Below, one piece after another: positions 4,397 through 31,668 of a DNA stretch of 37,315 nucleotides. The stretch covers positions 1 to 37,315 of the forward strand of contig JBEKHN010000019.1 in NCBI GenBank assembly GCA_050012255.1, given 5' to 3'. Within the stretch, counting starts at the first letter, position 1. Every line of letters starts with the position of its first letter. The notes under the pieces were generated by a model that was given only the letters and a program-made list of their open reading frames with translations, did no database searches and had not been told where the DNA came from. The position numbers and the translations under genes are program-made. This DNA is from Candidatus Bathyarchaeia archaeon (GTDB taxonomy: Archaea; Thermoproteota; Bathyarchaeia; Bathyarchaeales; Bathycorpusculaceae).

Positions 4397-6784
4397 ATGA
4401 AGAAGCGTAGTTCTAAGGCTATAGTTTTGCTTTTCATAGCGATTCTATCCATAAGTGTTGCGTCAGTGTTTCGTACGTATGCACCGTCGATCGAGTGGCA
4501 GGGGTACGTTAAACCATCATTCATAGACTATGCACCCAGCGGGATGCCGGACTTCGATCAAAAGCAGATTGGTTGGGGTCCAGCGCTGGGTGTCTACACT
4601 TGGTGTGGTCCTGTTGCAGTCGCAAACTCGTTGTGGTGGCTCGACTCAGAATACGAATCGTTGGTGTTCGCTAACCCTGTGGCACCACCGACGATAAGTG
4701 ACCACTTTCCCCTAGTAAAGGCCTTTGGCACAGCGTTTGATGATCATGACCAAAGCAACGTTCTTCCGCTTGTGACGACTTTGGCTTACTTGATGGACAC
4801 TGATGGTCTTCAGAGTCACGATGGTCACTGGGGAACACGTTGGCAAGACCTGGAAAGTGGAACCAAGTATTACCTAGCCCAGCAGGGACTAGCCAAATAC
4901 TTTGAGGTTCACAACCGAACTTTCCCAGACTTTGGTTGGTTGAGCAACGAGATCCTGAATTGTCAGGACGTTGAACTATTCCTCGAGTTCTACCAATGGA
5001 ATGGAGCAAGTTGGTACCCGGTCACCAGCATTCCAAGTCTTGAGTCTGGTCACTTTGTGACTTGTGCGGGCGTGAACGTCACAAAAAGCCAAGTGCTTAT
5101 AAGTGACCCGTGGCAGGACGCGTATGAAGCCGGAACCGCTCCTGGACGCTCGCCCGTTGCGCACCCGGCTGGCCACAACGCTACGGTCCACAACGATGCA
5201 CAGTACGTTTCACAAGATGCCTACAACATGACAGTGCGGATCTTTACGCCACCCATAACCATGCCGCCACCAGATGCTTATCCAAATACGGTATACGAGT
5301 TGGAAGGCTATCTGCAGACCATGGGTATTTTCGACAACAGTTATCACACATTCGTCAGAGCAGCTGTAGCGACATCGCCTGTTGCTCAGTGGCCCGGGTA
5401 CACCAAGCCTGCATTTCCTGACTATGCACCTAGCGGCATGCCAGATTTTGACGAACAGCAAGACGCGTGGGGCAAGATGGGTACATACACCTGGTGTGTT
5501 CCTGTGGCTGTTGCGGACTCGTTGTGGTGGCTCGACTCAGAATTCGAATCACTCATGTTTGCCAACCCTGTGGCGCCACCGACAATAAGTGATCACTTCA
5601 ACTTGGTAAACTCGTCAAACCCCTCGAATTGGGACGATCATGATCCAAACAACGTTATGTCTCTTGTTCCGACTTTGGCATTTCTGATGGACACTGATGG
5701 TCTTGCGTCTGGGGACGGGCACTCAGGAACGAGGTGGACCGACATTCAGACGGGAATCCAAAAGTATCTAGTCCAACAAGGTGTGTCAAACATGTTTGAG
5801 GTTCACAACCAATCATTCCCAGAATTTGGATGGATAGACAAAGAAATCGAAAAGTGCCAGGACGTTGAGCTTTGCATTGAATTCTGGCAATGGAATGGAA
5901 CAGCGTGGACCAACACAACAGTCACAGAACCGTTTTTCCAATTCGGCCACTGTGTGGCGTGTGCAGGGGTGAACATCACAACAAGCCAGGTGCTTGTGTG
6001 CGACCCGGCACAAGATGCATACGAGGCTGGAACGGTTCCGGGACGCGAACCAATACCGCACGCGTACCCACATAACTCTACGGTTCATAATGATGCGCAG
6101 TACGTGTCTCAGGATGCTTACACAGTATCGTTGTTCAATTTCTCTAGCCTGCCTCTGCCTATGTCGACGCCACCGCCGGGTTACCCGCAGACCGTGTGGG
6201 AGCTGCAAAATTACCTCGGGCCGAGTTTTCACGCGTTCATAAAAGGTGCTATCGCAGTTTCGCCTGCATTGAACATAGTTCCAGTCAATGTCGAGAGTGA
6301 TAAAGACAAGTGCCTCCCAATGCCAACGGTTGGCAAGGGATTTCTAACGGACATAAACGCCACAGTCGTCAATAACGGATCAAGTGCAGAGAGCTTCACA
6401 GTCACCGTGTACGCAAACTCAACTGCCTTGGGAACCACGACAGTGAACAACTTGGCTCCAGGCGCAAACGTTACGGTTACCGTTGCGACTTGGAACACGA
6501 CCACCTGGGCTTACGGCCACTACTTCCTATCTGTAACAACCAACGCGTCTTATTCGACCTTTACAAGCGATCTTGCGGTGTGGGTGGTCATTCCTGGCGA
6601 CATCAACGGCGACGGCACAGTGGACATCTACGACGCCATACTGCTGTCTGGCGCCTTCAACTCCAGTCCAGGCAGTACAAAGTGGAACCCCAACGCAGAC
6701 ATAAACTGCGACGCCGTCGTTGACATCTACGACGCCATCCTGCTATCAGGTCACTTCAACAAGAGCCAAGTGTACGACCCATAG
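4397..6784 (+). CDS. Secreted protein with two tandem C39/papain-like domains, CARDB-like domain and C-terminal dockerin
   Basis: Signal peptide after MKKRSSK; duplicated units with DQ..WCxPVA, GHxV and DP; two EF-hand-like repeats GDINGDGTVDIYDAILL / ADINCDAVVDIYDAILL. Confidence 0.75.
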   Translation: MKKRSSKAIVLLFIAILSISVASVFRTYAPSIEWQGYVKPSFIDYAPSGMPDFDQKQIGWGPALGVYTWCGPVAVANSLWWLDSEYESLVFANPVAPPTISDHFPLVKAFGTAFDDHDQSNVLPLVTTLAYLMDTDGLQSHDGHWGTRWQDLESGTKYYLAQQGLAKYFEVHNRTFPDFGWLSNEILNCQDVELFLEFYQWNGASWYPVTSIPSLESGHFVTCAGVNVTKSQVLISDPWQDAYEAGTAPGRSPVAHPAGHNATVHNDAQYVSQDAYNMTVRIFTPPITMPPPDAYPNTVYELEGYLQTMGIFDNSYHTFVRAAVATSPVAQWPGYTKPAFPDYAPSGMPDFDEQQDAWGKMGTYTWCVPVAVADSLWWLDSEFESLMFANPVAPPTISDHFNLVNSSNPSNWDDHDPNNVMSLVPTLAFLMDTDGLASGDGHSGTRWTDIQTGIQKYLVQQGVSNMFEVHNQSFPEFGWIDKEIEKCQDVELCIEFWQWNGTAWTNTTVTEPFFQFGHCVACAGVNITTSQVLVCDPAQDAYEAGTVPGREPIPHAYPHNSTVHNDAQYVSQDAYTVSLFNFSSLPLPMSTPPPGYPQTVWELQNYLGPSFHAFIKGAIAVSPALNIVPVNVESDKDKCLPMPTVGKGFLTDINATVVNNGSSAESFTVTVYANSTALGTTTVNNLAPGANVTVTVATWNTTTWAYGHYFLSVTTNASYSTFTSDLAVWVVIPGDINGDGTVDIYDAILLSGAFNSSPGSTKWNPNADINCDAVVDIYDAILLSGHFNKSQVYDP
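4496..6266 (+). repeat. Intragenic tandem duplication, two units of about 890 bp (4496-5389, 5390-6266)
   Basis: Near-identical blocks such as TCGTTGTGGTGGCTCGACTCAGAAT, CACCGAC(G/A)ATAAGTGA and TGATGGACACTGATGGTCTT in both units. Confidence 0.9.
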
Positions 6785-16556: not shown

Positions 16557-16656
16557 AGCCCGGTGGAGGGAAGAACACCTTTCCGCCGATTGTAGTGGAC
16601 AAGCATAGCGGGCTTTGGACCCGCCGACGAGAGTTCGAATCTCTCCCGGGCTACCA
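16557..16656 (+). tRNA. tRNA-Gln(UUG) with 24-nt intron at position 10/11 (16567-16590), CCA encoded
   Basis: Acceptor AGCCCGG/CCGGGCT, D stem G|TGT/GCAT, anticodon stem GCGGG/CCCGC with TTG at 16615-16617, T arm GAGAG-TTCGAAT-CTCTC; BHB-like motif at the intron ends. Confidence 0.92.
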
Positions 16657-16846
16657 CTACATGTGTAAGAGAATACTCCCCAATTTTTTCACTCTTCTAA
16701 TAGTTGAGCTGACAATGACTTTGCGTAATGATTGACCGTGAACGCGTGATTTCGTAAAGGTCTAGCGCGCGCTTTCCGTAACATTTTCTGATTGCTGAGT
16801 ATCTCTTACCAGTGAGAGAGATCTCGGAAGCGTTCCGTCCGTTGTA

Positions 16847-19962: not shown

Positions 19963-20722
19963 CTAACCGTGAAACTTCGCAAATTCCTTGGACTTCTCTA
20001 AAATCTCTGGAATGGTTAGCCTCGCCAAGTCTTCAGTATCGCCTATGAAACTGCATACTAGGCCGGTTCTAGCGTTAAGCGTGTTTGGAACAGTAACCAG
20101 CCTCATGGGATCGACTGAAACTGTGAAGTGGACTCTGTCAAAAACGTGAGTCTGCTTCTGCAACAGCTTAGTCAGTTTGAACCGGCTGGCATGGTGACAC
20201 CAAATCGGATCTCGCTCCCTATACCTAACCCAGTCTCTATAGTCAAAGTCCAAAACGTGAACGTGAAAGCCCATTCTTCCGCTAAAAACGACAGCGAGCC
20301 GCGAGTAATACTTCCTTATGATTTCGCATAGCTGCAAAGTCAACGTTTTAGCCATGCCCAAACATTCAACGCAGACACTCCATTCTGGATCAAGCTGGTG
20401 TTCATGCTTCCACAGCATCATGTAGCTATCAACGTCGACGACATAGCGCCGTTTAGAGGAACGCAGTACCTAGCCTTGTACTTCTTTCCAACACGTTCAG
20501 GGAAGAGCCAGTTTAAAACGCTGAAGTAGACGTGTTGAGGCTTGAGTTTCTAGCAGTAGAAGCGAGGTCCTTCTCGCTTAGCCTGTTCTCGAATTTGTTG
20601 AGCTTGACGAATCTGCCTTCGCATAGCTTAACCCTGAAATGCTTTCTGCTCAGGTTCCAAAGACTAGGCACTCGGAGGGGAACGTCTAGGTAGAACCTTT
20701 CGATCTGCCCCTGTGAAAGCAA
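19963..20722 (-). pseudogene. Archaeo-eukaryotic primase (PriS-like), frameshifted
   Basis: Reconstructed motifs YVVDVD, VFSGRMGFHVH, VDPMRLVTVPNTLNARTGL; frameshifts near 20565 and 20448 and in-frame TAG at 20550-20552, judged against the second copy and motif continuity. Confidence 0.8.
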
Positions 20723-20845
20723 GTTTCGTCAAGCCCAACCCATCGCTTGCGTCCGGGCAAATAAAAGGCAAGTGCTGAAACGATTGGCTTGGGAGCTGGA
20801 GAGACTCAAGTTAAAGTGAGCACGCATCTAATTGTTCTTCGAAGT

Positions 20846-20863
20846 TAGGACATTTTTGTCCTA
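20846..20863. promoter_or_regulatory. Perfect inverted repeat, possible operator
   Basis: TAGGACA-TTTT-TGTCCTA upstream of the primase remnant. Confidence 0.35.
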
Positions 20864-21181
20864 GGGTAACTCGAATCCGAGCAAATGGAGATTTCTCTCA
20901 CAAATCCCCTTTTTTCTCTTTACCACACTCGCTTGCTACCTATTTTTCCGCAAAATTCTACGTCACACTCTAATTTGGTAACACTGATTTAAAATTGCGA
21001 ATTTTCCCTAGCGCGCAAAGGCAGCGCGCGCTTGTCAGGGCGACGTTCAAACTCTCGACAATGAGAGAACGAATTGTCTTAGTCGGTAGAGGAAAAGGTC
21101 AAGAGGTCACTTCGAGGATGACTTCGTCGTAGCCTAGCCTTGCTGAAACTCGGAAAGGCCTTAAAAGAAGAGTTAGACGCG

Positions 21182-21292
21182 CGCGAATATTTGATTCCGA
21201 TGTTAGAGAAGATGGACATTAAGTGCGAAATTCCTTTGAAGAATCTCGGCATTGGCAGGCAACTAGCTTGGTACAAAAAGCATTATTGCTGA
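21182..21292 (+). pseudogene. C-terminal gene fragment, DUF6884-like
   Basis: REYLIPMLEKMDIKCEIPLKNLGIGRQLAWYKKHYC*; family recognised from memory of the PLxxLGIGxQLAWY ending. Confidence 0.5.
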
Positions 21293-21390
21293 GCGCGTGC
21301 GCGTGTTTAGCCTAATCTTAGGGCTCCTGCAGCTCCTTCCCCGTAAAACATATCTTTTGGTTAAACCATACATGACGTGAAGAAATAGTA

Positions 21391-23073
21391 TTGTTAAAGA
21401 GAGCAGTTTCTGGAATAATTCTGACATTGCTGTTAACGGGCATGTTAACGTTGGCATTTAACATTCAACCAGTTAAAGCAAGTGGAACGATTTACATTAG
21501 GGCTGACGGCTCAGTGGACCCGCCAGACGCACCAATCACAACCTTAGACAACGTGACATACACGCTAACAGAAAATATTAATATTACAAGTTCTGACGAT
21601 GGAATTATTCTAGAAAGAGACAACATAATAATTGATGGAAATGGATACACAGTTCAAGGGTCAGTAACATTTTTTTCCAGAGGAATAATCCTGACGGGAA
21701 GAAGCAACGTAACAATCAAGAACACGAGAATTACGACATTCCATTATGGCATTACGACATTAGGTTATGAGCCCGAGATCGATTCGTGTTCTTATGGCAA
21801 CATTAGCGGAAACAACGTAGCAAACAACGTGGACGGCATCTATCTCAGTAGTTCTTCTGGCTACAGCATTAGCGGAAACAACATAACAGCAAACAACATG
21901 TGGGGCATCAGGCTCGCTTTTTCTTCTGGCAACAGTATCAGCGGAAACAACATGACAGCAAACGGCTGGGCTGGCATCTATCTCGAGTCTTGTTCTGGCA
22001 ACAGCATTAGCGGAAACAACATAGCAAACAACGGGCATGGCGTCCAGTTATACGGGTCTTCAAGCAATACTATGGCTGGAAATAACATAACAAACAACGG
22101 GTATGGCATCATGCTCGATTGGGCTTCTCCTGGCAACAAGCTTTATCATAACAACTTCAACAACACTAACCAAGTCTGTTCTTCAGACTCAATGAATGTT
22201 TGGGATGACGACTATCCAAGCGGTGGTAACTACTGGAGCGACTACGTTGGCGTTGACCTTTATCATGGACTCTATCAGAATGAGACCGGTAGCGATGGTA
22301 TAGGAGATATTCCCTGCATTATTGATGAAAATAATCAGGACAACTATCCTTTGATGGAGCCTTGGAGTCCTGTTGAAGTTGTTAACGCTACTATCGATAT
22401 TGACCCTGGTACTCTGAACTTGAGGAGCAGGGGTAAGTGGATTACTTGCTACGTTGAGCTTCCTAAGGGCTACAACGTAAGTGATATTAACGTTACCTCG
22501 GTTATGCTGAATGACACGGTTCCTGTCTATCCCAAGGCGCACGCTATAGGAGACTATGATGAAGACGGCATCCCAGACTTGATGGTTAAATTTGACAGAG
22601 CTGAAGTCATAGACTACATAATGGCTAATGTTAACATGACTGAACTGTTTGAAGAAAAGCTCATGACAGTTACATTAACCATAACTGGTAAACTCAATGA
22701 TGGAACACCACTCCAAGGGAATACAAAAATCAGAATAATAGCGCGCGCGGGGCTTCCAAGAATCAATAGCAAGATATCTTTTAACCTATCGCCAAACCCC
22801 GCATTAACCGGGCAAACAATCACTTTAACCGGCAATCTCAAGAACCAGCTTGGCAATGCGATAGGCAATGCTCCCATTGAAGTGTATTACAGCATAGACA
22901 ACGGTCTCAATTGGATATACGCAGGAGCAATACGAACGAACTCTACTGGCTGGTTCAGTGCCAAAGGAAAGCTCACAATCGTTGGCATCTTTCCAATCGC
23001 AGTTGTCTACCGAGGCAACTTCAGATACAGCCAAAGCTACCAAATAGAGAAGCTAACGGTCAAATTGCCGTAG
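21391..23073 (+). CDS. Secreted parallel beta-helix (NosD/CASH-like) protein with appended Ig-like domain
   Basis: Signal peptide, GTIYIRADGSVDP, repeated SGNSISGNNITAN units, GGNYWSDY...DGIGD...DNYPL, PDLMVKFDR. Confidence 0.85.
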   Translation: MLKRAVSGIILTLLLTGMLTLAFNIQPVKASGTIYIRADGSVDPPDAPITTLDNVTYTLTENINITSSDDGIILERDNIIIDGNGYTVQGSVTFFSRGIILTGRSNVTIKNTRITTFHYGITTLGYEPEIDSCSYGNISGNNVANNVDGIYLSSSSGYSISGNNITANNMWGIRLAFSSGNSISGNNMTANGWAGIYLESCSGNSISGNNIANNGHGVQLYGSSSNTMAGNNITNNGYGIMLDWASPGNKLYHNNFNNTNQVCSSDSMNVWDDDYPSGGNYWSDYVGVDLYHGLYQNETGSDGIGDIPCIIDENNQDNYPLMEPWSPVEVVNATIDIDPGTLNLRSRGKWITCYVELPKGYNVSDINVTSVMLNDTVPVYPKAHAIGDYDEDGIPDLMVKFDRAEVIDYIMANVNMTELFEEKLMTVTLTITGKLNDGTPLQGNTKIRIIARAGLPRINSKISFNLSPNPALTGQTITLTGNLKNQLGNAIGNAPIEVYYSIDNGLNWIYAGAIRTNSTGWFSAKGKLTIVGIFPIAVVYRGNFRYSQSYQIEKLTVKLP

Positions 23074-23317
23074 CATGCACTAAGAAATCAGTCTATCTTT
23101 CTGGTTCGCTTTGCCGACGAGCCAGTTTAGTCCGATAACTGACGCGATAGAAAGGAGACCCACAAGCGCGCGCATTCTACTCCCTCGAATCAAACGCAAA
23201 ATGTGCAAACAACATAACACAGCGCGCGCGCTTAGGACGCACGTCGATTAAATAGTCAAATGCAACACGTTTGACGGTAGTTAGCGAAACGCCGTGATGA
23301 ATGTAAGGGGCGTTCAT

Positions 23318-23779
23318 ATGAAAGTTAAGTGGAAGATACGGCGTCATATTAAGCCAGGGGATATAGGGTATCTCACTTATCTTCATGGAATCTTGTATGC
23401 AAAAGAATATGGCTACGACCAAACATTCGAAGCGTATGTTGCAGGTGGGCTTGCAGAATTTGTTCAATCGTTCAGACCCGCCAAAGATCAAATTTGGCTG
23501 GCAGAGACAAACGGTCGAATTATTGGTTCCATCGTCATTGTCGGGCACTCAAAAGTAGATGCTCAACTTCGCTGGTTCCTCGTTCATCCTGACTATCGAG
23601 GGCTTGGTATTGGCAAAGAGCTCCTGAAGGACGCGCTTCAGTTCTGTAAGGAGTGCAAGTACAAAACCATATTCCTCTGGACAACAAACGAACTAATAGA
23701 GGCTGGTCATCTCTACACATGCTTCGGCTTCAGTAAAACCGAGAGGAAAACGCACAAAATTAGCGCGCGCGCTACATAG
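23318..23779 (+). CDS. GNAT family N-acetyltransferase, C-terminus apparently truncated
   Basis: AQLRWFLVHPDYRGLGIGKELL, FLWT, AGHLY..FGF; ends abruptly ...THKISARAT in a (GC)5 tract. Confidence 0.85.
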   Translation: MKVKWKIRRHIKPGDIGYLTYLHGILYAKEYGYDQTFEAYVAGGLAEFVQSFRPAKDQIWLAETNGRIIGSIVIVGHSKVDAQLRWFLVHPDYRGLGIGKELLKDALQFCKECKYKTIFLWTTNELIEAGHLYTCFGFSKTERKTHKISARAT

Positions 23780-23803
23780 ACAACAATTTGAGGAAGACGG
23801 AGT

Positions 23804-24163
23804 TTGACGAAGAAAAAAAGCAAGACCCGTCGATGGATGGAAAAAAACAGCGTGGGCCTTCTGGAGGTAGTTGTTACAATTATCATCGGATTGCTGACAA
23901 TCAATTATTCAAGAACAGTTGTAATAATAAACCAGACATACGTGCCACCTGCCGCGCAGGCTAGCTGGCATACGGTGGAAAGTTGGCAATTGGGAGCCTC
24001 AGCAACGGCAACCACACAAACACTTACATTTGATTGGGCGGGATTCTTGGGAGACGTTTCTTGGTGTGTTACATTAGGTGTTGCAGGTCTAATCGGGCTA
24101 TACCGCTGGAAAAACTATCATTGGAAGACGGTAAATTGGCGCGCGCTAATGAATGCTCACTAA
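23804..24163 (+). CDS. Small membrane protein, possibly chimeric or truncated
   Basis: Two hydrophobic segments; the 3' end runs through the (GC)4 tract at 24139. Confidence 0.5.
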   Translation: MTKKKSKTRRWMEKNSVGLLEVVVTIIIGLLTINYSRTVVIINQTYVPPAAQASWHTVESWQLGASATATTQTLTFDWAGFLGDVSWCVTLGVAGLIGLYRWKNYHWKTVNWRALMNAH

Positions 24164-24660
24164 TGTTTTCTTCGGAGCCAGAATATCCATTGAGCCAATA
24201 TGAACCCGAATGTTGCGATTGTCGAAAAGATAATGACCAAGCCTGTGAAGGGATTTATGTATGCTTCGAATTCGACAGTAGGACCAACTAACCTACCCCC
24301 GATCAAGACATTGATTATCACAAGTAAGAATATGCTCAAGTACAAACCAACAGCCAAAAATGTTCTTGCACCCAACAAGATCGCTTCTCTTTTCGATTTT
24401 AGAAACCAAAAATAGCAAAGAATTGCACCTAGTAACGAGAATGAAGAATATATGCCAAACTCTGAGATAATGTAGCCATAACTAAGAAACGGAATCCCGA
24501 AGAAGTTCGTCATGCCCGCATGGTTAACTATTGTCAATACATCGTTTGGCATAGTTAGAACAATAGAATACATGACAAATACAAAACCGAGAATGACAAC
24601 AGCGATCTCGATTTCAACTCTATAGGATTCGCTTATGGTGGTTTCTTTCTTTGTTGGCAT
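24160..24660 (-). CDS. Hypothetical 4-TM membrane protein
   Basis: Four hydrophobic segments; GAGGA before ATG; AT-rich. Confidence 0.7.
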   Translation of the reverse strand: MPTKKETTISESYRVEIEIAVVILGFVFVMYSIVLTMPNDVLTIVNHAGMTNFFGIPFLSYGYIISEFGIYSSFSLLGAILCYFWFLKSKREAILLGARTFLAVGLYLSIFLLVIINVLIGGRLVGPTVEFEAYINPFTGLVIIFSTIATFGFILAQWIFWLRRKH

Positions 24661-24862
24661 AAATCCTCATAGAAGATAAATCTTGAAACCAACTATTAAC
24701 ACATTTTCTTTTCGCCACATAGCGTGCTTTGAAAACTTTAAGAAAAAAGAGTTTATGGCAAGGCGTACAGCTTCTTCGGTCTGCCTTCTTTCGGCTCGAG
24801 GCTTTTTCCCCTGTCATCCCCGATCTTCCGAACGGTTCCCCATGCCACTCCATATACTCACT

Positions 24863-24994
24863 CACACACTGTGCGAGTGTGTGGTCACTATGTATAGGTA
24901 GGTAGGTAGGGTGTGTGAGAGATTGTGTGCGTAGTAGAGAGTAGTAGAGAGCGAGTGTGTGTGCTTAGGGGTAAAGTTTTACCCAACCAACCAA
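24863..24994. repeat. Low-complexity microrepeat block
   Basis: CACACACT/AGTGTGTG hairpin, (TAGG)4, (GTAGTAGAGA)2, GGGTAAA-GT-TTTACCC, (CCAA)3. Confidence 0.7.
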
Positions 24995-25037
24995 CACATG
25001 ACAAAACTTTTTCCAAGAGGCAAACCAAAAGTAATCA

Positions 25038-25277
25038 GCACCTCGCTGATCGCGAGGTGCCTGCAAAGCAAGAGGCAGGGTGCCACCCTTCGTCACCTAC
25101 GCCCCTATAACGAAGCAGGTCACCTAATACGGGGCTTTGGTGACTACGGGTGGCTGGTAAGAGGCTACGTGAACGTGCTGTGAGAAAAGAGGCTACCTAT
25201 TACGCACGTTCGCTCTCACAAAGAAAGAAAGCAATTCAAGACGCTATATTCCAAGAGGCTACTCTTGACGCTATATT
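25038..25277. ncRNA. Candidate structured non-coding RNA or ssDNA element
   Basis: 9-bp hairpin, three-way junction with complementary loops, 10-bp stem, three AAGAGGCTAC copies; strand not determined. Confidence 0.5.
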
Positions 25278-25384
25278 ATAGTGCTAAAGAAAGAAAGTAG
25301 ACAGCAGGGCAAAAGAGGGGTAGAAAAGCGTAAAACGGGAAAAACTGTTAGAAGTTAAATCTATAAGACAAAACAACAACATGT

Positions 25385-26080
25385 TTGAACATGAATCATC
25401 GCAAAGCTCTTTCACTCTCAATATCGGTAGTGCTTTTGGTAATCTTTATAGTGCTGGTCTATTTCTATCGGTCATCTTTTGAATTCCTTTCGATTTTTGT
25501 AAGAGATGCATTGTGGGCAAGCGTTCTTGTCACGGTTGTGCTGGTAATCATAAACACTTTCTATGCAATGCAAACAAGACAGACAATTAAAGAGATGGAA
25601 AAAGCAAGGAAAGCCGATTTCCTTCCACACGTCAGAGCCGAGTTGAGTTTTCTAGGTCCAGTTTTTTTGATTCTGAAGGCAACTAACTTCGGCAAAGGAC
25701 CAGCTACTGACATTAGAACCGAAATCACTTTTCTACCTTCAAATGAAAAAAGGGTCTGGCAACAGGCAATTATGTCACCTAATGAATTCATTCGCATTCT
25801 ACTGCCAGATGGAAATCTGGCAAAGGTATTGGAGAGGTCTGCGGAAATCACTGCGAAGGGAGAATACAAGGATGTTTTCGGTCAAACCTTCAAAATAGAT
25901 GAAAGAATGGACGTAAAGGCATTCATTGATGAAGCTACACAACTTCGACCCATTCTAGAGAGGGACCTTGCCAGACTTGTTGAAGATATAAAAGACAAGT
26001 TAGACGGTATAGAGCGAGAATTACATGATATACGGTTACAATTGGAAACCAGAAGAATAGCAGAAACGGAAGAGCTGTGA
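25385..26080 (+). CDS. Hypothetical protein with two N-terminal TM helices and C-terminal coiled coil
   Basis: 231-aa ORF; TM-TM-YAMQTRQT..EM...NFGKGPA pattern. Confidence 0.75.
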   Translation: MNMNHRKALSLSISVVLLVIFIVLVYFYRSSFEFLSIFVRDALWASVLVTVVLVIINTFYAMQTRQTIKEMEKARKADFLPHVRAELSFLGPVFLILKATNFGKGPATDIRTEITFLPSNEKRVWQQAIMSPNEFIRILLPDGNLAKVLERSAEITAKGEYKDVFGQTFKIDERMDVKAFIDEATQLRPILERDLARLVEDIKDKLDGIERELHDIRLQLETRRIAETEEL

Positions 26081-26086
26081 CACCGA

Positions 26087-26333
26087 ATGGACAAAGAGGA
26101 TAGAGAGTTTCAGCTCGAACTAACAAGACTTCAATTAATATTTGAATGGTTTTTTGCGGTACTTGTTGGTATGTTCAATCTTTTATGGGCTACTGTCTTT
26201 CTACCGAGATAACCCTGCTATGTTCTTGGGTACAAACGCGATGATAGTTCTGATTATGGCTCTTCTTGTCGTGACTTATAGATTAATGGACTATAAATTC
26301 AAACAAATAAGAAAGAGCTACATCGAGAGCTAG
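26087..26333 (+). pseudogene. Small membrane protein gene, probably frameshifted
   Basis: MDKEDREFQLELTRLQLIFEWFFAVLVGMF in one frame continues as SIFYGLL...KFKQIRKSYIES* in another; shift near 26175. Confidence 0.45.
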
Positions 26334-26393
26334 CATTTTCCGTTTCTAGCGCGTGCGCTAAGTGTTTTAAGAACGGAAAGTCTATTCTAACAC

Positions 26394-26843
26394 ATGAAAA
26401 AAGAATTTGAATGGACAAATCACGAAGCTGTCAAGAATGCAGTTAAAGAGTGGTTGAAAAACCGAAGATATTTTGAAATCCTTCCTGCAAAAACATGGCT
26501 CAATCCTTTGAACATTGATGTCCTCACAAGAAAGACTTGTCCAGAAGAACTGTACCTCTTTGAATTATATGAAATAAAGGTGAAAAGAGATAACCTTCAG
26601 GTAGCACCTTATCAACTAGAAACCTGTAGAATACGACTTGAAGACCAAGGTGCTACTAGATGCTATGTTGTTGTGCCACACTGGCTTTTAGACCAACTAG
26701 ACAATTGCGGTGAATATCCTTTTTTCATTGCAGCAATGAAACGATTTGGATATGGCATAATAACCGTTAGTCCTGCGCTTATTCCGACCGAATTTGTGAA
26801 ACCTCTTACTTTCAAGAGAGTCAAAGAAGCTACATGGAAATAG
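26394..26843 (+). CDS. PD-(D/E)XK nuclease-like protein
   Basis: HEAVK..VKEWL...IDVL...YEIK...YQL pattern, followed by YVVVP and GIITV strands. Confidence 0.6.
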   Translation: MKKEFEWTNHEAVKNAVKEWLKNRRYFEILPAKTWLNPLNIDVLTRKTCPEELYLFELYEIKVKRDNLQVAPYQLETCRIRLEDQGATRCYVVVPHWLLDQLDNCGEYPFFIAAMKRFGYGIITVSPALIPTEFVKPLTFKRVKEATWK

Positions 26844-27008
26844 TCTAAACCATTTCTTGAGATTCTTTTCCTCTTCTATTCAGAATTCAGAAAGGGAGCC
26901 TTTCTAAGGCACGGAATAACGTTTAATAGCCTATTAGCCTTTATCCTTCTAGGAGAAGGAGAGAATGAAGACTAAAACGGTAAAGGTGGCTCTAGATAGC
27001 GCGCGCGC

Positions 27009-27281
27009 ATTTAGGGGGACACAATACCGAGCCTTATACTTCTTGCCGACCCTTTCTGGAAAGAGCCAGTTTAGAACAGAGAAGTAAACGTGACGAGGCC
27101 TGAGTTTCCGACAGTAAAACTTCAAGTCCCTGGCTGATAGGCGATTTTTGAACCTGTTTAGTTTGACGAATCGGCCTTCGCCAAGCGAAACCCGGAAATG
27201 CTTCCGGCTTAGGTTCCAGAGGCTGGGCACTTGGAGGGGATAGTCTACATAGAACCTTTGGATTTCGCTAGGTGAGAGCAA
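27009..27281 (-). pseudogene. N-terminal fragment of a second PriS-like primase copy
   Basis: MLSPSEIQRFY...YCVPLN closely matches 20722-20452; similarity stops at the (GC)5 tract 26999-27008, before the catalytic DxD. Confidence 0.85.
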
Positions 27282-27321
27282 GGTTCGTCATCCAAATAGA
27301 AGACCGCGCGCGCTTTCGATT

Positions 27322-27333
27322 CTCACCGGTGAG
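27322..27333. repeat. 12-bp palindrome CTCACCGGTGAG (also 31189-31200; 10/12 variant 16805-16816)
   Basis: Direct sequence match; each copy lies near a (GC)4 tract. Confidence 0.75.
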
Positions 27334-27818
27334 TAAAAGTGATTTTGGAGTTTTGTATGGTAAGGTTCAAAGGTTAGCAAGCGCGCATGCGTGTTCCTAA
27401 AATGGTCAAAAATGGTTTTAATTCGGTTTTGCCCGTTTCTCCTGTGTTCGAGGAAGACAAAATCCCCAAAGAAATCAAGAACAGACACGAAGCCCAAAGC
27501 CGTCCCCAGATGATGAAGTGCGAAGGCGCGCGCGCCATAGATTATTGAAGTTATCTTTTCAATATGTTTTTCCAGATGTTTCAAGCAGTTTTACCATTGA
27601 CAGGAATTCTGATGCTTCAATTGGAACAATTTTATAACCTTTGTTTATGGCTTGAGTAATGAGATTAGTAGCGCGAGCTATGTTCCACAAATCTTAAATA
27701 AAGTTCTCGCACAAAGAGACACTTATCCTATGTTTTGGAATGTCGTTTAGCGAAAAATGAACTTCTTCTCGAACATAGGAGAAAAATGAATAGCGTAGAG
27801 AAGGGAGAAAAAGGAAAA

Positions 27819-29990
27819 ATGAGAGAAAGCTCAAAACTGGGAATTCTGCTTTTAGCTTTGCTGGTGATGAGCCTTTTTGCAGGCGCCTATTTTGTTTCAG
27901 GTACATCCGATTCTTCAATGATAGCCGATAAAGCGAGGTCAAATCATCCTTCGCCGAATGAACAAGTGACAGTCTCAGACCCAACAGCCGAAAAGCCCCT
28001 GACGAATATTATTGTCGATTCCGATGCACCGCAATTTGCCTCAGACAATGACGTTGCGGGCTCATCGGGTTCTGGCTGGAAACCCGACGTAAACATAGTG
28101 CCTGGAAGCATCTACACGGCGAGAGATGAGGTTAATCCCTCAATTGCCACGTACATTGATTCGTCAACAGGAGCGGTTACTCTGTGGGCTGCGATGCAGA
28201 GTTGGGATTCATACTATTCCCACTGGTTCCTATGGGTCTTTGCTTCTAACGATAGAGGAGCCACGTGGTGGCAACGTGGCGCAGCCGCTTGGGTTTCGAA
28301 CCGAAGCATCATCAACCCTTCAATAGCAGTCAGTCCTTACAACGGAACAGTCTTCGTCGCCGTTCAAAACACCGCGTTCGGAGGATCTACAAACGACATA
28401 CAAATCCATGTTATCTCTCCAGTAGCTCTTGGCCCATGGGCATCGTATAATATTGACGCTGATGCTGACGATGACCTCTCTCCGCAACTGGTTTCGGAAT
28501 ACGGCTGGGGAACTGGCAACTGGTTGCACGTTTCTTATGAGAGGTACGTGACTTATGACGACCGCGACCTATGCTATGGAAACTCGGGAGACTGGGGCAA
28601 AACATGGTCAACGAAAGTGTTACAAGGTGCGGTAGGCACCCCTGGAGCAGCCGATGTATTCACTCAAAGTGACATCGCATTTGTGCAAGACAACGTATAC
28701 GTGGCCTACAGGCACTCAATCGACTACAATACACAAGGAATCATAGAAGTTATGTACTCCACTAATTTTGGCGGCACATTTAAAATACCCGTTAAAGTCA
28801 GTCCCACAAAAAACACTAATGCTCGGTGGCCAACCGTAATAGGCTCTCACAAAGGACCTTGGAACGAGCCAACCACAATGTGGATTGCTTATCAAAATGC
28901 CAGTGGCAGCCCCACCTACGGCGACGTTTTTGCTTGTTGGAGTAAGGACTTCGGTGATACATGGTCGTCTCCAGTAACAATAGCTGGCACTTCTTATGAT
29001 GAAGGGAAACCTCAGCTGAGCGTGGACGGAATGGGCACAGAAAACGGCAACGTACCTGGGTACATTCATCTTGTGTACTGGACAAGCGAAAACACCGCCT
29101 CCAGAACTAACGGTGTATACTACACGCAAATCGCTTACTTCGAGCCGACCTACGCTCCTGCCCCGCAGGTTTATCTCTTCGAAGAAGGCTGGTCAACCCC
29201 GAAAGGACAAATCATTGACAACAACGGGTACGCGAGTGCCACTTACAACACTCCGACAATCACCACTTTCACACGTACAGTTGCAGGAGAAACCCTTTGG
29301 GTGCCAGGCGTCGCATGGACAGACTTACGAAACCCCAACTACGATGTATACTTCACCACACTCGACACGATGTTCCGCGTTACCGTCTATCCTAGCACTC
29401 AGACTGTGGTCGCAGGCGGGTCACTATCGTACTACATCACGGTCACGCTAAACTCAGGCGCAACGGCAACAGCCACGCTGGACATCGTTGGACCAAACAC
29501 GTACCACCTGAGCAGCGCAAACGTGTGGGGCCACACCTTCAATCCGCCAACAGTCACACCAACTGCCACATCGCTCCTAACCTTCAATACCGCCAACTTC
29601 CTAGGTCCAGGAAGCTATTCCATCCGTGCATCCGCGGTCATAGGAGGCTACCGCCGCACCGCCGCTGTAACCTTTGTGGTGACGGCATCCCCGACCCTTA
29701 CACTGAACATCAATCCGTCCACGGTCGCAAGAGGCTCGCCACTAGCCATAAACGGGCAACTCACTCCTGGCATGGCCACGACAGTATACCTTTACTACAG
29801 ATATCCCCACGCAACTGGTTCATGGGCACTAGCCACTACCATACCAACCAACGCGGCTGGAGCCTACAGCGTAACCGCAACGGTTCCAATGAGCCTAACG
29901 CCCGGAATCTATGACCTAGTAGCGGTCTGGTTCAACCCAGCCAACGGCGCCTACACAGCTAGTCCCATAAGAGTACTAACAATAACATAG
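27819..29990 (+). CDS. Secreted BNR/Asp-box (sialidase-like propeller) protein with C-terminal Ig-like domains
   Basis: Signal peptide; SNDRGATW, SGDWGKTW, STNFGGTF, SKDFGDTW; T/V-rich beta-sandwich tail. Confidence 0.8.
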   Translation: MRESSKLGILLLALLVMSLFAGAYFVSGTSDSSMIADKARSNHPSPNEQVTVSDPTAEKPLTNIIVDSDAPQFASDNDVAGSSGSGWKPDVNIVPGSIYTARDEVNPSIATYIDSSTGAVTLWAAMQSWDSYYSHWFLWVFASNDRGATWWQRGAAAWVSNRSIINPSIAVSPYNGTVFVAVQNTAFGGSTNDIQIHVISPVALGPWASYNIDADADDDLSPQLVSEYGWGTGNWLHVSYERYVTYDDRDLCYGNSGDWGKTWSTKVLQGAVGTPGAADVFTQSDIAFVQDNVYVAYRHSIDYNTQGIIEVMYSTNFGGTFKIPVKVSPTKNTNARWPTVIGSHKGPWNEPTTMWIAYQNASGSPTYGDVFACWSKDFGDTWSSPVTIAGTSYDEGKPQLSVDGMGTENGNVPGYIHLVYWTSENTASRTNGVYYTQIAYFEPTYAPAPQVYLFEEGWSTPKGQIIDNNGYASATYNTPTITTFTRTVAGETLWVPGVAWTDLRNPNYDVYFTTLDTMFRVTVYPSTQTVVAGGSLSYYITVTLNSGATATATLDIVGPNTYHLSSANVWGHTFNPPTVTPTATSLLTFNTANFLGPGSYSIRASAVIGGYRRTAAVTFVVTASPTLTLNINPSTVARGSPLAINGQLTPGMATTVYLYYRYPHATGSWALATTIPTNAAGAYSVTATVPMSLTPGIYDLVAVWFNPANGAYTASPIRVLTIT

Positions 29991-30185
29991 CAAAAAGGTG
30001 CGCAACCCTAAGCCATCCCCCCATTTTTTCTCTGTATTGCCTAGAAAAGACCACTTCTCACTCGCAAACGTTGTACGTCGTCGTATGCCAGCTAAACTTT
30101 AACGAATTGGGGTTTTGGGTTTGGGGGTAAAGTTTTATTGCTGAAATGAGGTAGGGTAGACCACCTAGCAACGAGGTCATAGACA

Positions 30186-31079
30186 ATGGATTTGGAGAAG
30201 GGTTTCTTGGGCGGTTTCGCGCGCGCGCGCGCGAAGGAGAAGCTGAACTTCACACGCTTCTACAGGATTTTCCCCGGGGGCATACCGGAGGTGTGTAAAT
30301 TCGCAGAAGTTCCTGTTCCGATCGAGCGGATCAAAAGGATAGAGAAAGCGATGAAGGCCTCAAGGGATGAGGAGGTCAAGGGAGTTCTGACCAGGGCGTT
30401 TGGATGGGAGAAGAGACGTGACAAAGCTAAGGCGCTGCTTGATGCGGAGAAGAGGGAGAAGGAAGCCAAGTTAGAAGCGCTGAGGATGGAAGCTCAGCTG
30501 GATCCAAGGAAAATTCCTGCATACCTTGAAGAGAAGAGCTCGCCCTTGCTGAGCGATCTGCGTGAAGCGTGCGCCATTGAGAAGGACAGCCTCCAGGATG
30601 CATGCCTTGAAGCTGTCGAATATTGGGATTCGAATGCTCGCTCAGAAACCAAGACTTTTGAGGATTATATTGAGTACTGCTTATCAAATTGGGCATGGTG
30701 GGTGAGGCTATGTAATGCAACAAAAAAGTACAGTGGAACGACCTTCGGCTGCCGTTGTCCTGAATGTAACGGCAAATATGAATATGCTACGTATTATGAC
30801 TCCGGCGCTGAATTCTTCAAATGTCCCAACTGTGGAAAAACTGTATGCTATCCATGCCCAATCTGCATGGAAGCGTGGCGTTCCGAGAAGCGTTTAGAAT
30901 ATGATCCGAAGAGAAATACACTCCACTGTTCCTTGTGTGGATCTCACTTTGACGTGACCCCTCCAGCCCTGAATAGGCAGAGCACTGCTTACACAGAAAA
31001 AGTCAAGCAGCAGAGAAGAAATGCGGAAAAGCAAGACCAAGAGATGATGAAAAGGTTGTGGCGTAGCCTGATGCATTAA
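30186..31079 (+). CDS. Hypothetical protein with four CxxC motifs; N-terminus probably chimeric
   Basis: CPEC, CPNC, CPIC, CSLC; (CG)8 tract encodes ARARA near the start. Confidence 0.7.
   Translation: MDLEKGFLGGFARARAKEKLNFTRFYRIFPGGIPEVCKFAEVPVPIERIKRIEKAMKASRDEEVKGVLTRAFGWEKRRDKAKALLDAEKREKEAKLEALRMEAQLDPRKIPAYLEEKSSPLLSDLREACAIEKDSLQDACLEAVEYWDSNARSETKTFEDYIEYCLSNWAWWVRLCNATKKYSGTTFGCRCPECNGKYEYATYYDSGAEFFKCPNCGKTVCYPCPICMEAWRSEKRLEYDPKRNTLHCSLCGSHFDVTPPALNRQSTAYTEKVKQQRRNAEKQDQEMMKRLWRSLMH
30216..30235. repeat. Perfect 20-bp palindrome TT(CG)8AA, longest member of the (GC)n family
   Basis: Direct reading; other tracts of at least 8 nt at 283, 488, 15643, 16765, 21024, 21178, 22741, 23166, 23222, 23763, 24139, 26999, 27306, 27526, 31206, 31312, 31449. 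Confidence 0.95.
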
Positions 31080-31668
31080 TCAGATTTCGCAGGTTCTTTG
31101 CCAACAAATGCACGCACCGCTGCGACTAGCGCGCGATTCTTTCATTTCTACAGTTATGTTGCCCATTAATATGAGATCGATCGAAATACTCACCGGTGAG
31201 TCAATGCGCGCGCTACTGCAAAGAAGCAAGAAGGAGCTGCGGTCCTCAAAACTTCCCACAAATCCGAAAACAAGAATTATAACCATTTTACACCAATTAT
31301 TTAACCCGCCTGCGCGCGCTTTCCAGTTTTTCCCGCGCCTTGACTCTTTCTGCTGGACCGCCAAATCATTTTACGCTAAAGTAAACTAGAATTATGGTGG
31401 GGATTAGGAAGTAACTTTGTATCGTCGACTATCGTTCGCATATCTGGAGCGCGCGCGCTCAGAAGCGCGTTTCTCGCTGACTGAGAAATTCGAAGCAATT
31501 CTGTAGAACGCGCACATCTAGATTTGTTGCATTTGATACAGATTAGTTGCAGGAATCACGCCTATCCCACATCATATTGCCGATAGAAGAGGATTCCATA
31601 AAGCATTTAAGCAGAATATGTTCAGATGTGAATATGATTGATTACCATTGACAAAGATATTTAGGTCG

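Follow-up and report, generated by a model that had tools for sequence, protein, structure and literature searches.

What kind of element occupies positions 25038 to 25277 of a 37,315-nucleotide (nt) archaeal contig, JBEKHN010000019.1 from a Bathyarchaeia archaeon (the whole of which is here called the window), and does it act as RNA or as DNA? These 240 nt are non-coding and lie inside a gap of about 724 to 730 nt, which is the largest on the contig. A first-pass annotation, made from the letters alone, had proposed a novel structured RNA in which a three-way junction with kissing loops is followed by switchable stems. Every motif that it named is present where it was placed, and a locally stable, unrecognized non-coding element that has no Rfam family is real, but the specific architecture is unsupported. 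We conclude that the feature is real yet unclassified and that, with no relatives found, it is too early to call it a new RNA. Our own reading, which we hold tentatively and with somewhat less than even confidence, is that this cluster of repeats and hairpins works at the level of DNA: a segment inserted into a PriS-like primase gene would have left it as a relic of its control or maintenance region, similar to an origin or a recombination site. A small RNA competes closely with this explanation.

The 240 nt fold more stably than every one of 200 dinucleotide-shuffled controls on both strands, with z-scores of -3.52 for the plus strand and -4.00 for the minus strand. Significant folding is concentrated in positions 25038 to 25154, while the right half (25155 to 25277) falls short of significance (z, -1.38/-0.69). 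The 73-nt interrupted inverted repeat (Table 1) has the arms GCCACCC-TTC-GTCACC-TAC-GCCCC and GGGGC-TTT-GGTGAC-TAC-GGGTGGC, in which 20 of 24 arm positions are complementary (83%), and has z-scores of -4.38 (plus) and -5.36 (minus). When the contig is scanned in 80-nt windows, positions 25079 to 25158 on the minus strand rank second of 1,490 windows (z, -4.73, compared with -2.69 on the plus strand). Only seven of these windows reach a z-score of -4 or below, and the six others lie within open reading frames (ORFs). In a regression on guanine-plus-cytosine (GC) content over 2,480 windows of 120 nt, the best window of the region is 13th. Few local folds of the contig match the long hairpin in stability, and stability by itself marks no gene. 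Hairpin 1 (23 nt) has z-scores of -4.80 (plus) and -5.99 (minus); the 37 kb contain one perfect 9-bp hairpin, compared with 1.1 ± 1.35 in 30 shuffles, and hairpin 1 taken alone is no more than chance. The weak hairpin that follows it is not significant (z, -1.81/-1.34). Neighboring hairpins abut with linkers of 0 to 2 nt. Two other candidates for structure were dropped, one at 20760 to 20940 (z, -1.73) and one in the GC-rich patch to the left of the feature at 24755 to 24850 (z, +0.26/-1.47).

The stable fold is not the one that had been proposed. Over the same 73 nt, the three-way junction formed by P1, P2, and P3 has an energy of -22.4 kcal/mol compared with -33.6 kcal/mol for one interrupted hairpin, which is a deficit of 11.2 kcal/mol. 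All 11 pairs of P2 and P3 have an ensemble probability of 0.00, while all 18 pairs of the extended hairpin have a probability of at least 0.98, and the supposedly kissing segments GCCCC and GGGGC are the apical helix of that hairpin. The energy of a pseudoknot or kissing interaction is outside the energy model, and a 5-bp contact would need to supply more than 11 kcal/mol to rescue the junction. What allows the junction to be drawn on paper is a duplication of GTCACCTA (at 25092 and 25119), which gives GGTGAC two candidate partners. The switch that was thought to follow it does not hold up either: the pairing of TGTGAGA with TCTCACA has an energy of -6.7 kcal/mol and a probability of 0.00, compared with -14.8 kcal/mol and pair probabilities of at least 0.96 for the stem GTGAACGTGC/GCACGTTCGC of hairpin 3. 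With zero-length linkers on both sides, the geometry suggests that the two pairings are incompatible as a pseudoknot. The region does resemble purine riboswitches and the Alu domain of the signal recognition particle (SRP) RNA in that its segments, on paper, make up a closing stem that bears two hairpins whose loops are complementary. Unlike a purine riboswitch (RF00167) or SRP Alu, it gives no covariance-model match at the gathering score or at an E value of ≤10, and the junction is not its stable fold. The gene downstream encodes a membrane ORFan without a known family. A riboswitch-like three-way junction with a GCCCC/GGGGC loop-loop lock, followed by an expression platform of alternative stems, is drawn from complementary segments that do exist, and we give it almost no credence.

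Searches for known RNA classes do not place the element. At the gathering score, a cmscan of the whole window against Rfam has a partial tRNA at 16589 to 16645 as its sole match, and at an E value of ≤10, positions 24500 to 25500 give four chance-level matches (best E, 0.42), of which none is a riboswitch or SRP RNA. By eye, the region contains no convincing C/D-box, H/ACA, or bulge-helix-bulge motif. A defense-system non-coding RNA of the retron or ToxI-like kind was rejected, with PADLOC giving only weak coiled-coil and sub-threshold matches and no reverse transcriptase or toxin, and a guide RNA of an IS110 element, IscB, or TnpB was rejected, with no such recombinase or nuclease gene found in Pfam or NCBIfam. 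A coding explanation for the core (25038 to 25160) was dropped because no ORF there has protein relatives; a 74-amino-acid (aa) ORF that spans it gave three candidates, none with an E value of ≤1. The 724-nt gap has no blastn match (distant mode) in the plasmid and phage collections.

The RNA fold also leaves unexplained the density of repeats in this region. Between 24840 and 25330 there are 49 repeated 8-mers (either strand), compared with 4.8 ± 2.8 (maximum, 16) in 300 shuffles, and 16 repeated 10-mers, compared with 0.36 (maximum, 4). The excess of direct and inverted repeat words reaches leftward to about 24860. The word AAGAGGC occurs five times within 245 nt (25015 to 25259), at 25015, 25070, 25159, 25187, and 25253, always on the plus strand, which is half of the 10 occurrences on both strands of the window. 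The last three of these belong to exact copies of AAGAGGCTAC, whose threefold occurrence had been noted at first pass together with the duplication of GACGCTATATT, and both observations are borne out; with one mismatch allowed, AAGAGGCTAC occurs 7 times in the window, compared with 2.31 expected. The AAGAGGC copies alternate with the hairpins: hairpin 1 stands between copies 1 and 2, the long hairpin between copies 2 and 3, and hairpin 3 between copies 3 and 5, with copy 4 separating its 5' and 3' arms. Copies of CAAGAGGCA at 25014 and 25069 flank hairpin 1, GAGNNNGTGTGCKTAG has two direct copies at 24919 to 24968 and one inverted copy at 25197 to 25220, AAAGAAAGAAAG has two direct copies and one inverted copy, and GAGNNNGTGTGC occurs three times. 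Because an RNA fold leaves the two copies of GACGCTATATT, the two of AAAGAAAGAAAG, and the three of GAGNNNGTGTGC unexplained, and because five same-strand AAGAGGC copies alternate with hairpins, these repeats support a function of the region as DNA.

Folding and pairing discriminate neither between the strands nor between RNA and DNA. Positions 25030 to 25225 folded as DNA have z-scores of -4.52/-5.40, which is as significant as the RNA folding, and 41 of the 42 pairs in six helices are Watson-Crick, with one G-T pair, in hairpin 3, that is able to pair on the plus strand only. The reading of the cluster as DNA is favored because an RNA fold explains neither the direct repeats nor this strand symmetry nor the Watson-Crick pairing of the arms. 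Signals for transcription are similarly two-sided: TATA-like words and runs of T4 to T5 are present on both strands of the gap. Upstream of genes on this contig, A-rich stretches precede TTAAWW-type boxes, and comparison with these favors neither orientation.

An RNA from the minus strand is nevertheless an explanation that we weigh seriously, although we consider it unlikely. It would be an independent small non-coding RNA gene of about 195 to 225 nt, beginning some 25 nt 3' of one or the other of the duplicated AATATAG words (25271 to 25277 or 25244 to 25250) that could serve as TATA boxes, and running through hairpin 3, the long hairpin, and the weak hairpin to end at hairpin 1 and UUUU. 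The minus strand folds slightly better over both the 240 nt and the 73 nt, it is the strand on which the long hairpin ranks second in the contig, and the core is GC-rich (59.3%, compared with 40 to 44% in the remainder of the gap). Three terminator-like sites are called on it at 25033 to 25088, compared with 0.8 ± 0.9 in shuffles. Hairpin 1 with TTTT is among them, although this T-run is only T4 (25030 to 25027) and lies 7 nt beyond the stem. The 3x3 internal loops turn purine-purine on this strand (G-A, A-G, and A-A around a U-A pair), which may be meaningful, but hairpin 3 is not significant (z for 25169 to 25220, -0.80), its G-T pair becomes a C-A mismatch, and no wobble pairs mark the strand. 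Compared with gene upstreams, the boxes have no A-rich stretch 5' of them that resembles a transcription factor B recognition element. A minus-strand RNA would also be without an Rfam match and would leave the direct repeats unexplained.

On the plus strand, the TATA-like motif reported upstream of the feature does exist as the A+T-rich TAAAGTTTTA, about 60 nt 5' of it, inside a near-palindrome with 7-bp arms (24969 to 24984) that is possibly an operator or promoter element. The intergenic word TTGGGTTTGGGGTAAAGTTT(TA) occurs at three sites (249 to 269, 24959 to 24984, and 30115 to 30137), and relatives of the near-palindrome are found at the first and the last of these, the last being about 50 nt 5' of an ATG at 30186. 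An RNA from this box, with a possible start near 25002, would be an approximately 385-nt leader of the gene for a 231-aa protein to the right or a separate small RNA that shows AAGAGGC(UAC) in its loops and linkers, and we judge it improbable. The same GGGGTAAAGTTTTA word stands about 50 nt 5' of the gene at 30186, hairpin 3 is better on the plus strand (z, -2.70), which is also the only strand on which its single G-U can pair, and the plus-strand fold places three of the five AAGAGGC copies in loops or linkers. However, a T5 run (25008 to 25012) directly follows the predicted start, there is no T-run between the structured core and the coding region, and a TATA-like TTAAATCTATAAG of its own precedes the ATG of the 231-aa gene by about 25 nt. 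Moreover, a relative of that gene in another Bathyarchaeia genome, described below, has a short upstream gap with no similarity to this region.

Table 1. Coordinates of the features in and around the non-coding gap
Feature	Positions	Strand or setting	Details
Non-coding gap	24661-25390	Between divergent genes 24160-24660 (-) and 25391-26080 (+)	GC 45.2%
GT-rich degenerate tandem repeats	24911-24968		GAGNNNGTGTGCKTAG twice, GTAGTAGAGA twice; related inverted to 25197-25220
24-nt inverted repeat	24914-24937 and 25197-25220		75% complementary, 259 nt apart; TCTCACA is its outer end
Near-palindrome	24969-24984		GGGTAAA-GT-TTTACCC; contains TATA-like TAAAGTTTTA (24972-24981)
AAGAGGC copy 1	25015-25021	+	Within TTCCAAGAGGCA
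Hairpin 1	25038-25060		Perfect 9-bp inverted repeat, GCACCTCGC (25038-25046) / GCGAGGTGC (25052-25060); 5-nt loop
Weak hairpin	25060-25079		CCTGC/GCAGG, 5 bp; AAGAGGC copy 2 (25070-25076) in loop and 3' arm
Long interrupted inverted repeat	25082-25154 (73 nt)		Helices of 7+6+5 bp, two 3x3 internal loops, 25-nt apical loop
Proposed P1	25082-25088 / 25148-25154		GCCACCC/GGGTGGC
Proposed P2	25089-25093 / 25110-25114		TTCGT/ACGAA
Proposed P3	25119-25124 / 25139-25144		GTCACC/GGTGAC
Proposed kissing segments	25101-25105, 25131-25135		GCCCC, GGGGC
AAGAGGCTAC copy 3	25159-25168	+; linker between long hairpin and hairpin 3	
Hairpin 3	25169-25213		10-bp stem, GTGAACGTGC (25169-25178) / GCACGTTCGC (25204-25213); 25-nt loop with AAGAGGCTAC copy 4 (25187-25196)
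TCTCACA	25214-25220		Competing partner of TGTGAGA (25179-25185)
6-bp hairpin	Within 25240-25277		CAAGAG/CTCTTG
Two GACGCTATATT copies	25240-25250, 25267-25277	TATA-like on either strand	Flank AAGAGGCTAC copy 5 (25253-25262)

The wider setting of the gap appears to be that of an insertion. A 283-nt direct repeat, 75.6% identical, is present at 20452 to 20731 and at 27010 to 27290, and both copies correspond to the 5' part of a minus-strand gene for a PriS-like primase (NCBIfam TIGR00335; E, 1e-8, which is below the family cut-off). The right copy is in frame through ...YCVPLN, where homology ends, making it a 5' fragment, while the left copy, on the side of the insertion, is disrupted by two frameshifts and by a TAG in frame. 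The remaining 3' part of the gene (19963 to 20451) is an open frame that begins in the catalytic YVVDVD motif. The intervening segment from 20452 to 27009 (6.56 kb) has a GC content of 43.1% compared with 48.0% for the contig. The simplest reading of this arrangement is that the 6.56-kb segment was inserted into the PriS-like gene, which on this reading is the target of the insertion and not an enzyme of the island. The first-pass annotation had offered, as an alternative, an origin or priming signal for a primase of the island. This alternative is weakened because the PriS-like gene is no intact gene of the island: the insertion splits it, and the insertion-side copy is degraded. An origin-like role of the DNA is still part of our reading.

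The inserted segment contains genes for a NosD-like beta-helix protein, a GNAT protein, and small membrane ORFans, the gap studied here, the 231-aa gene, and a gene for a 149-aa protein. For the last of these, an ORFan at 26394 to 26843 on the plus strand, an Atlas model resembles PD-(D/E)xK folds (XisH, MmcB-like, and P4 cII; TM, 0.63 to 0.70), and an IDV...ELYEIKVK motif can be seen by eye. The gap itself is flanked on the left by a 166-aa membrane ORFan on the minus strand and on the right by the 231-aa membrane-anchored ORFan on the plus strand, with a likely ATG at 25391. Neither protein has a meaningful match in Pfam, NCBIfam, or PADLOC, and the 231-aa protein has a single weak PHROGs match to a family of unknown function. 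A possible basic 81-aa ORF (24620 to 24865, minus strand) shares bases with the beginning of the 166-aa gene and extends over the GC-rich patch at the left of the gap; were it genuine, about 525 nt of the gap would be left as non-coding. Elsewhere, the contig codes for TFB, SUI1/aIF1, an Ssb-like OB protein, and pyruvate:ferredoxin oxidoreductase (Pfam).

Relatives of the right-hand neighbor provide a comparison. Among 885 candidates, 63 relatives of the 231-aa protein have an E value of ≤0.001; almost all are metagenomic, and those that bear a name are Bathyarchaeota or Bathyarchaeia. They include closer relatives, 60 to 80% identical, encoded on metagenomic contigs of up to 34 kb. Our alignment contains the 231-aa query and 34 of the 63, with the 29 left out being mostly shorter or fragmentary. 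A pattern scan of genome contigs matched 24 stretches, of which one is a relative and leads to a 9.4-kb locus (L001) from a Bathyarchaeia metagenome-assembled genome. The relative there, 59% identical to the 231-aa gene, comes after a 672-aa gene in the same orientation, and a short gap separates the two. The region is absent from L001: all 11 blastn matches to 24501 to 25500 have E values of ≥1.2, and tblastx matches the gene only. Searches by tblastn of the 231-aa neighbor against phages and plasmids and of the PriS-like ORF against phages gave no match.

These findings bear on the possibility that the cluster is non-functional, which would make it either repeat debris left by slippage or duplication or a small palindromic insertion of the miniature inverted-repeat type, within an island that is decaying. 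We find this doubtful, about as much so as a minus-strand RNA. AAGAGGC at 25070 and 25159 flanks the 73-nt palindrome and CAAGAGGCA flanks hairpin 1, both of which resemble duplicated target sites, and the small palindromic unit with its short flanking direct repeats and the 24-nt imperfect terminal inverted repeat around 24914 to 25220 is laid out as in miniature inverted-repeat transposable elements, although neither the inverted repeat nor the AAGAGGC copies that flank the palindrome are decisive. The region is adjoined by microsatellite-like GT, GGTA, and GTAGTAGAGA tracts, a broken gene is present in the surrounding island, and L001 lacks the region. In contrast to such elements, only one copy is seen in the 46.7 kb searched, which comprise the window (37.3 kb) and L001 (9.4 kb). 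In addition, long neutral decay is hard to reconcile with hairpin arms that are perfect or nearly so.

If the cluster does work as DNA, its parts could be assigned as follows. Three Watson-Crick inverted repeats stand in a row (9-bp perfect, interrupted 18-bp, and 10-bp) in a low-GC segment that we take to be horizontally acquired; each of them is bracketed by direct copies of AAGAGGC(TAC), and A+T-rich, A-tract DNA with the duplicated GACGCTATATT comes next. A sequence-specific protein would bind the same-strand repeats, and the inverted repeats could extrude as hairpins once the DNA is unwound. The element may be defunct today, and any present-day activity is one that we infer.

There is a precedent for such a site in the crenarchaeal plasmid pRN1, in which a 100-nt stem-loop is reported to be needed for replication, is proposed to be the origin, and depends for its function on the integrity of the hairpin (PMC4234260). 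As in pRN1, we find a long imperfect stem-loop, the 73-nt inverted repeat, in non-coding DNA of an archaeal mobile element with a primase-type gene in the neighborhood. The pRN1 stem-loop differs in that it is reported to lie just downstream of an intact prim-pol/helicase gene and to recur in related plasmids, whereas the inverted repeat here is 73 nt and the nearest PriS-like genes, 1.7 and 4.3 kb off, are broken or truncated. Together, the insertion context, the pRN1 stem-loop, and the lack of an Rfam match down to an E value of 10 support the reading of the cluster as a DNA site. Iteron-type plasmid origins have several direct repeats of the same orientation, inverted repeats, an adjacent A+T-rich stretch, and a long intergenic gap. 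The region resembles them in these features, with five AAGAGGC copies on the plus strand where three or more same-orientation direct repeats are expected (three of the five belong to exact 10-mers), and differs in that its repeats are only 7 to 10 nt long, are irregularly spaced, and have no recognized initiator gene beside them.

Several observations weigh against a DNA control site. No initiator, Rep, integrase, or partition gene is recognized in the insertion or nearby (Pfam, NCBIfam, PHROGs, and PADLOC), and an adjacent intact prim-pol/helicase gene, as pRN1 has, is not found by Pfam, NCBIfam, or PHROGs. The neighbors of the region are instead secreted or membrane proteins and ORFans. The AAGAGGC spacings of 55, 89, 28, and 66 nt are not helically phased. 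Finally, abutting hairpins in a core of high GC content also resemble a structured RNA gene, and the TATA-like boxes and T-runs could frame a transcript on either strand.

One form that such a transcript could take makes use of the repeats. If the GC-rich core were transcribed as an orphan RNA of Bathyarchaeia of about 200 nt, its three adjacent hairpins would display five AAGAGGC(UAC) motifs in loops and linkers, and it could serve to titrate, as a decoy or a platform, either a protein that binds RNA or the anti-Shine-Dalgarno end of the ribosome. Hairpin 1 pairs a CACCUC-like arm with a GAGGUG arm. CsrB and RsmZ are multi-hairpin decoy small RNAs with the motif GGA, and the likeness to them, which is speculative and holds if the plus strand is transcribed, is that a short motif occurs about five times in loops or linkers between stable hairpins. 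In contrast to CsrB and RsmZ, the motif here is AAGAGGC and not GGA, and it is known here from sequence alone; to our knowledge, archaea have no CsrA-like partner. We regard such an orphan RNA as very improbable.

What the element means depends on which of these explanations is correct. As a cluster of DNA sites, it would be an unremarkable trace of mobile DNA in an archaeal lineage that has been little studied, useful mainly for marking the boundaries and history of the insertion that splits the primase-like gene. As a discrete RNA, it would be an unclassified archaeal small RNA with an unusual layout of repeated motifs in a group in which almost no regulatory RNAs are known by experiment. 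The analysis removes a riboswitch-like topology from consideration and makes no long-standing question testable.

Several other features of the contig were observed. The word GCGCGCGC has 25 copies, compared with 0.48 expected from shuffles, and none is in the gap studied here. It is found at about 17 sites (e.g., 283 to 290, 16765 to 16772, 23763 to 23772, 26999 to 27008, 30219 to 30232, and 31449 to 31458), which by eye are mostly intergenic or at gene ends, often as TAGCGCGCGC(TA). The palindrome CTCACCGGTGAG occurs twice, at 27319 to 27337 and 31186 to 31204 (89% over 19 nt), each time beside a GCGCGCGC site. The partial tRNA matched by Rfam belongs to a likely tRNA-Gln at 16557 to 16656 on the plus strand, with the anticodon UUG and an encoded CCA (assigned partly by eye), in which an apparent insertion of about 25 nt separates the 5' acceptor half from the D arm; the Rfam match covers model positions 9 to 63 only, and ARAGORN finds nothing. 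Within the gene for an 821-aa CARDB/dockerin protein, a stretch of about 740 nt is duplicated (4494 to 5225 and 5388 to 6122; 70% identical). A 751-aa secreted protein (27735 to 29990, plus strand) has no Pfam match, and its three Asp-box-like SxDxGxTW motifs seen by eye (SNDRGATW, SGDWGKTW, and SKDFGDTW) suggest a BNR or sialidase-like propeller.

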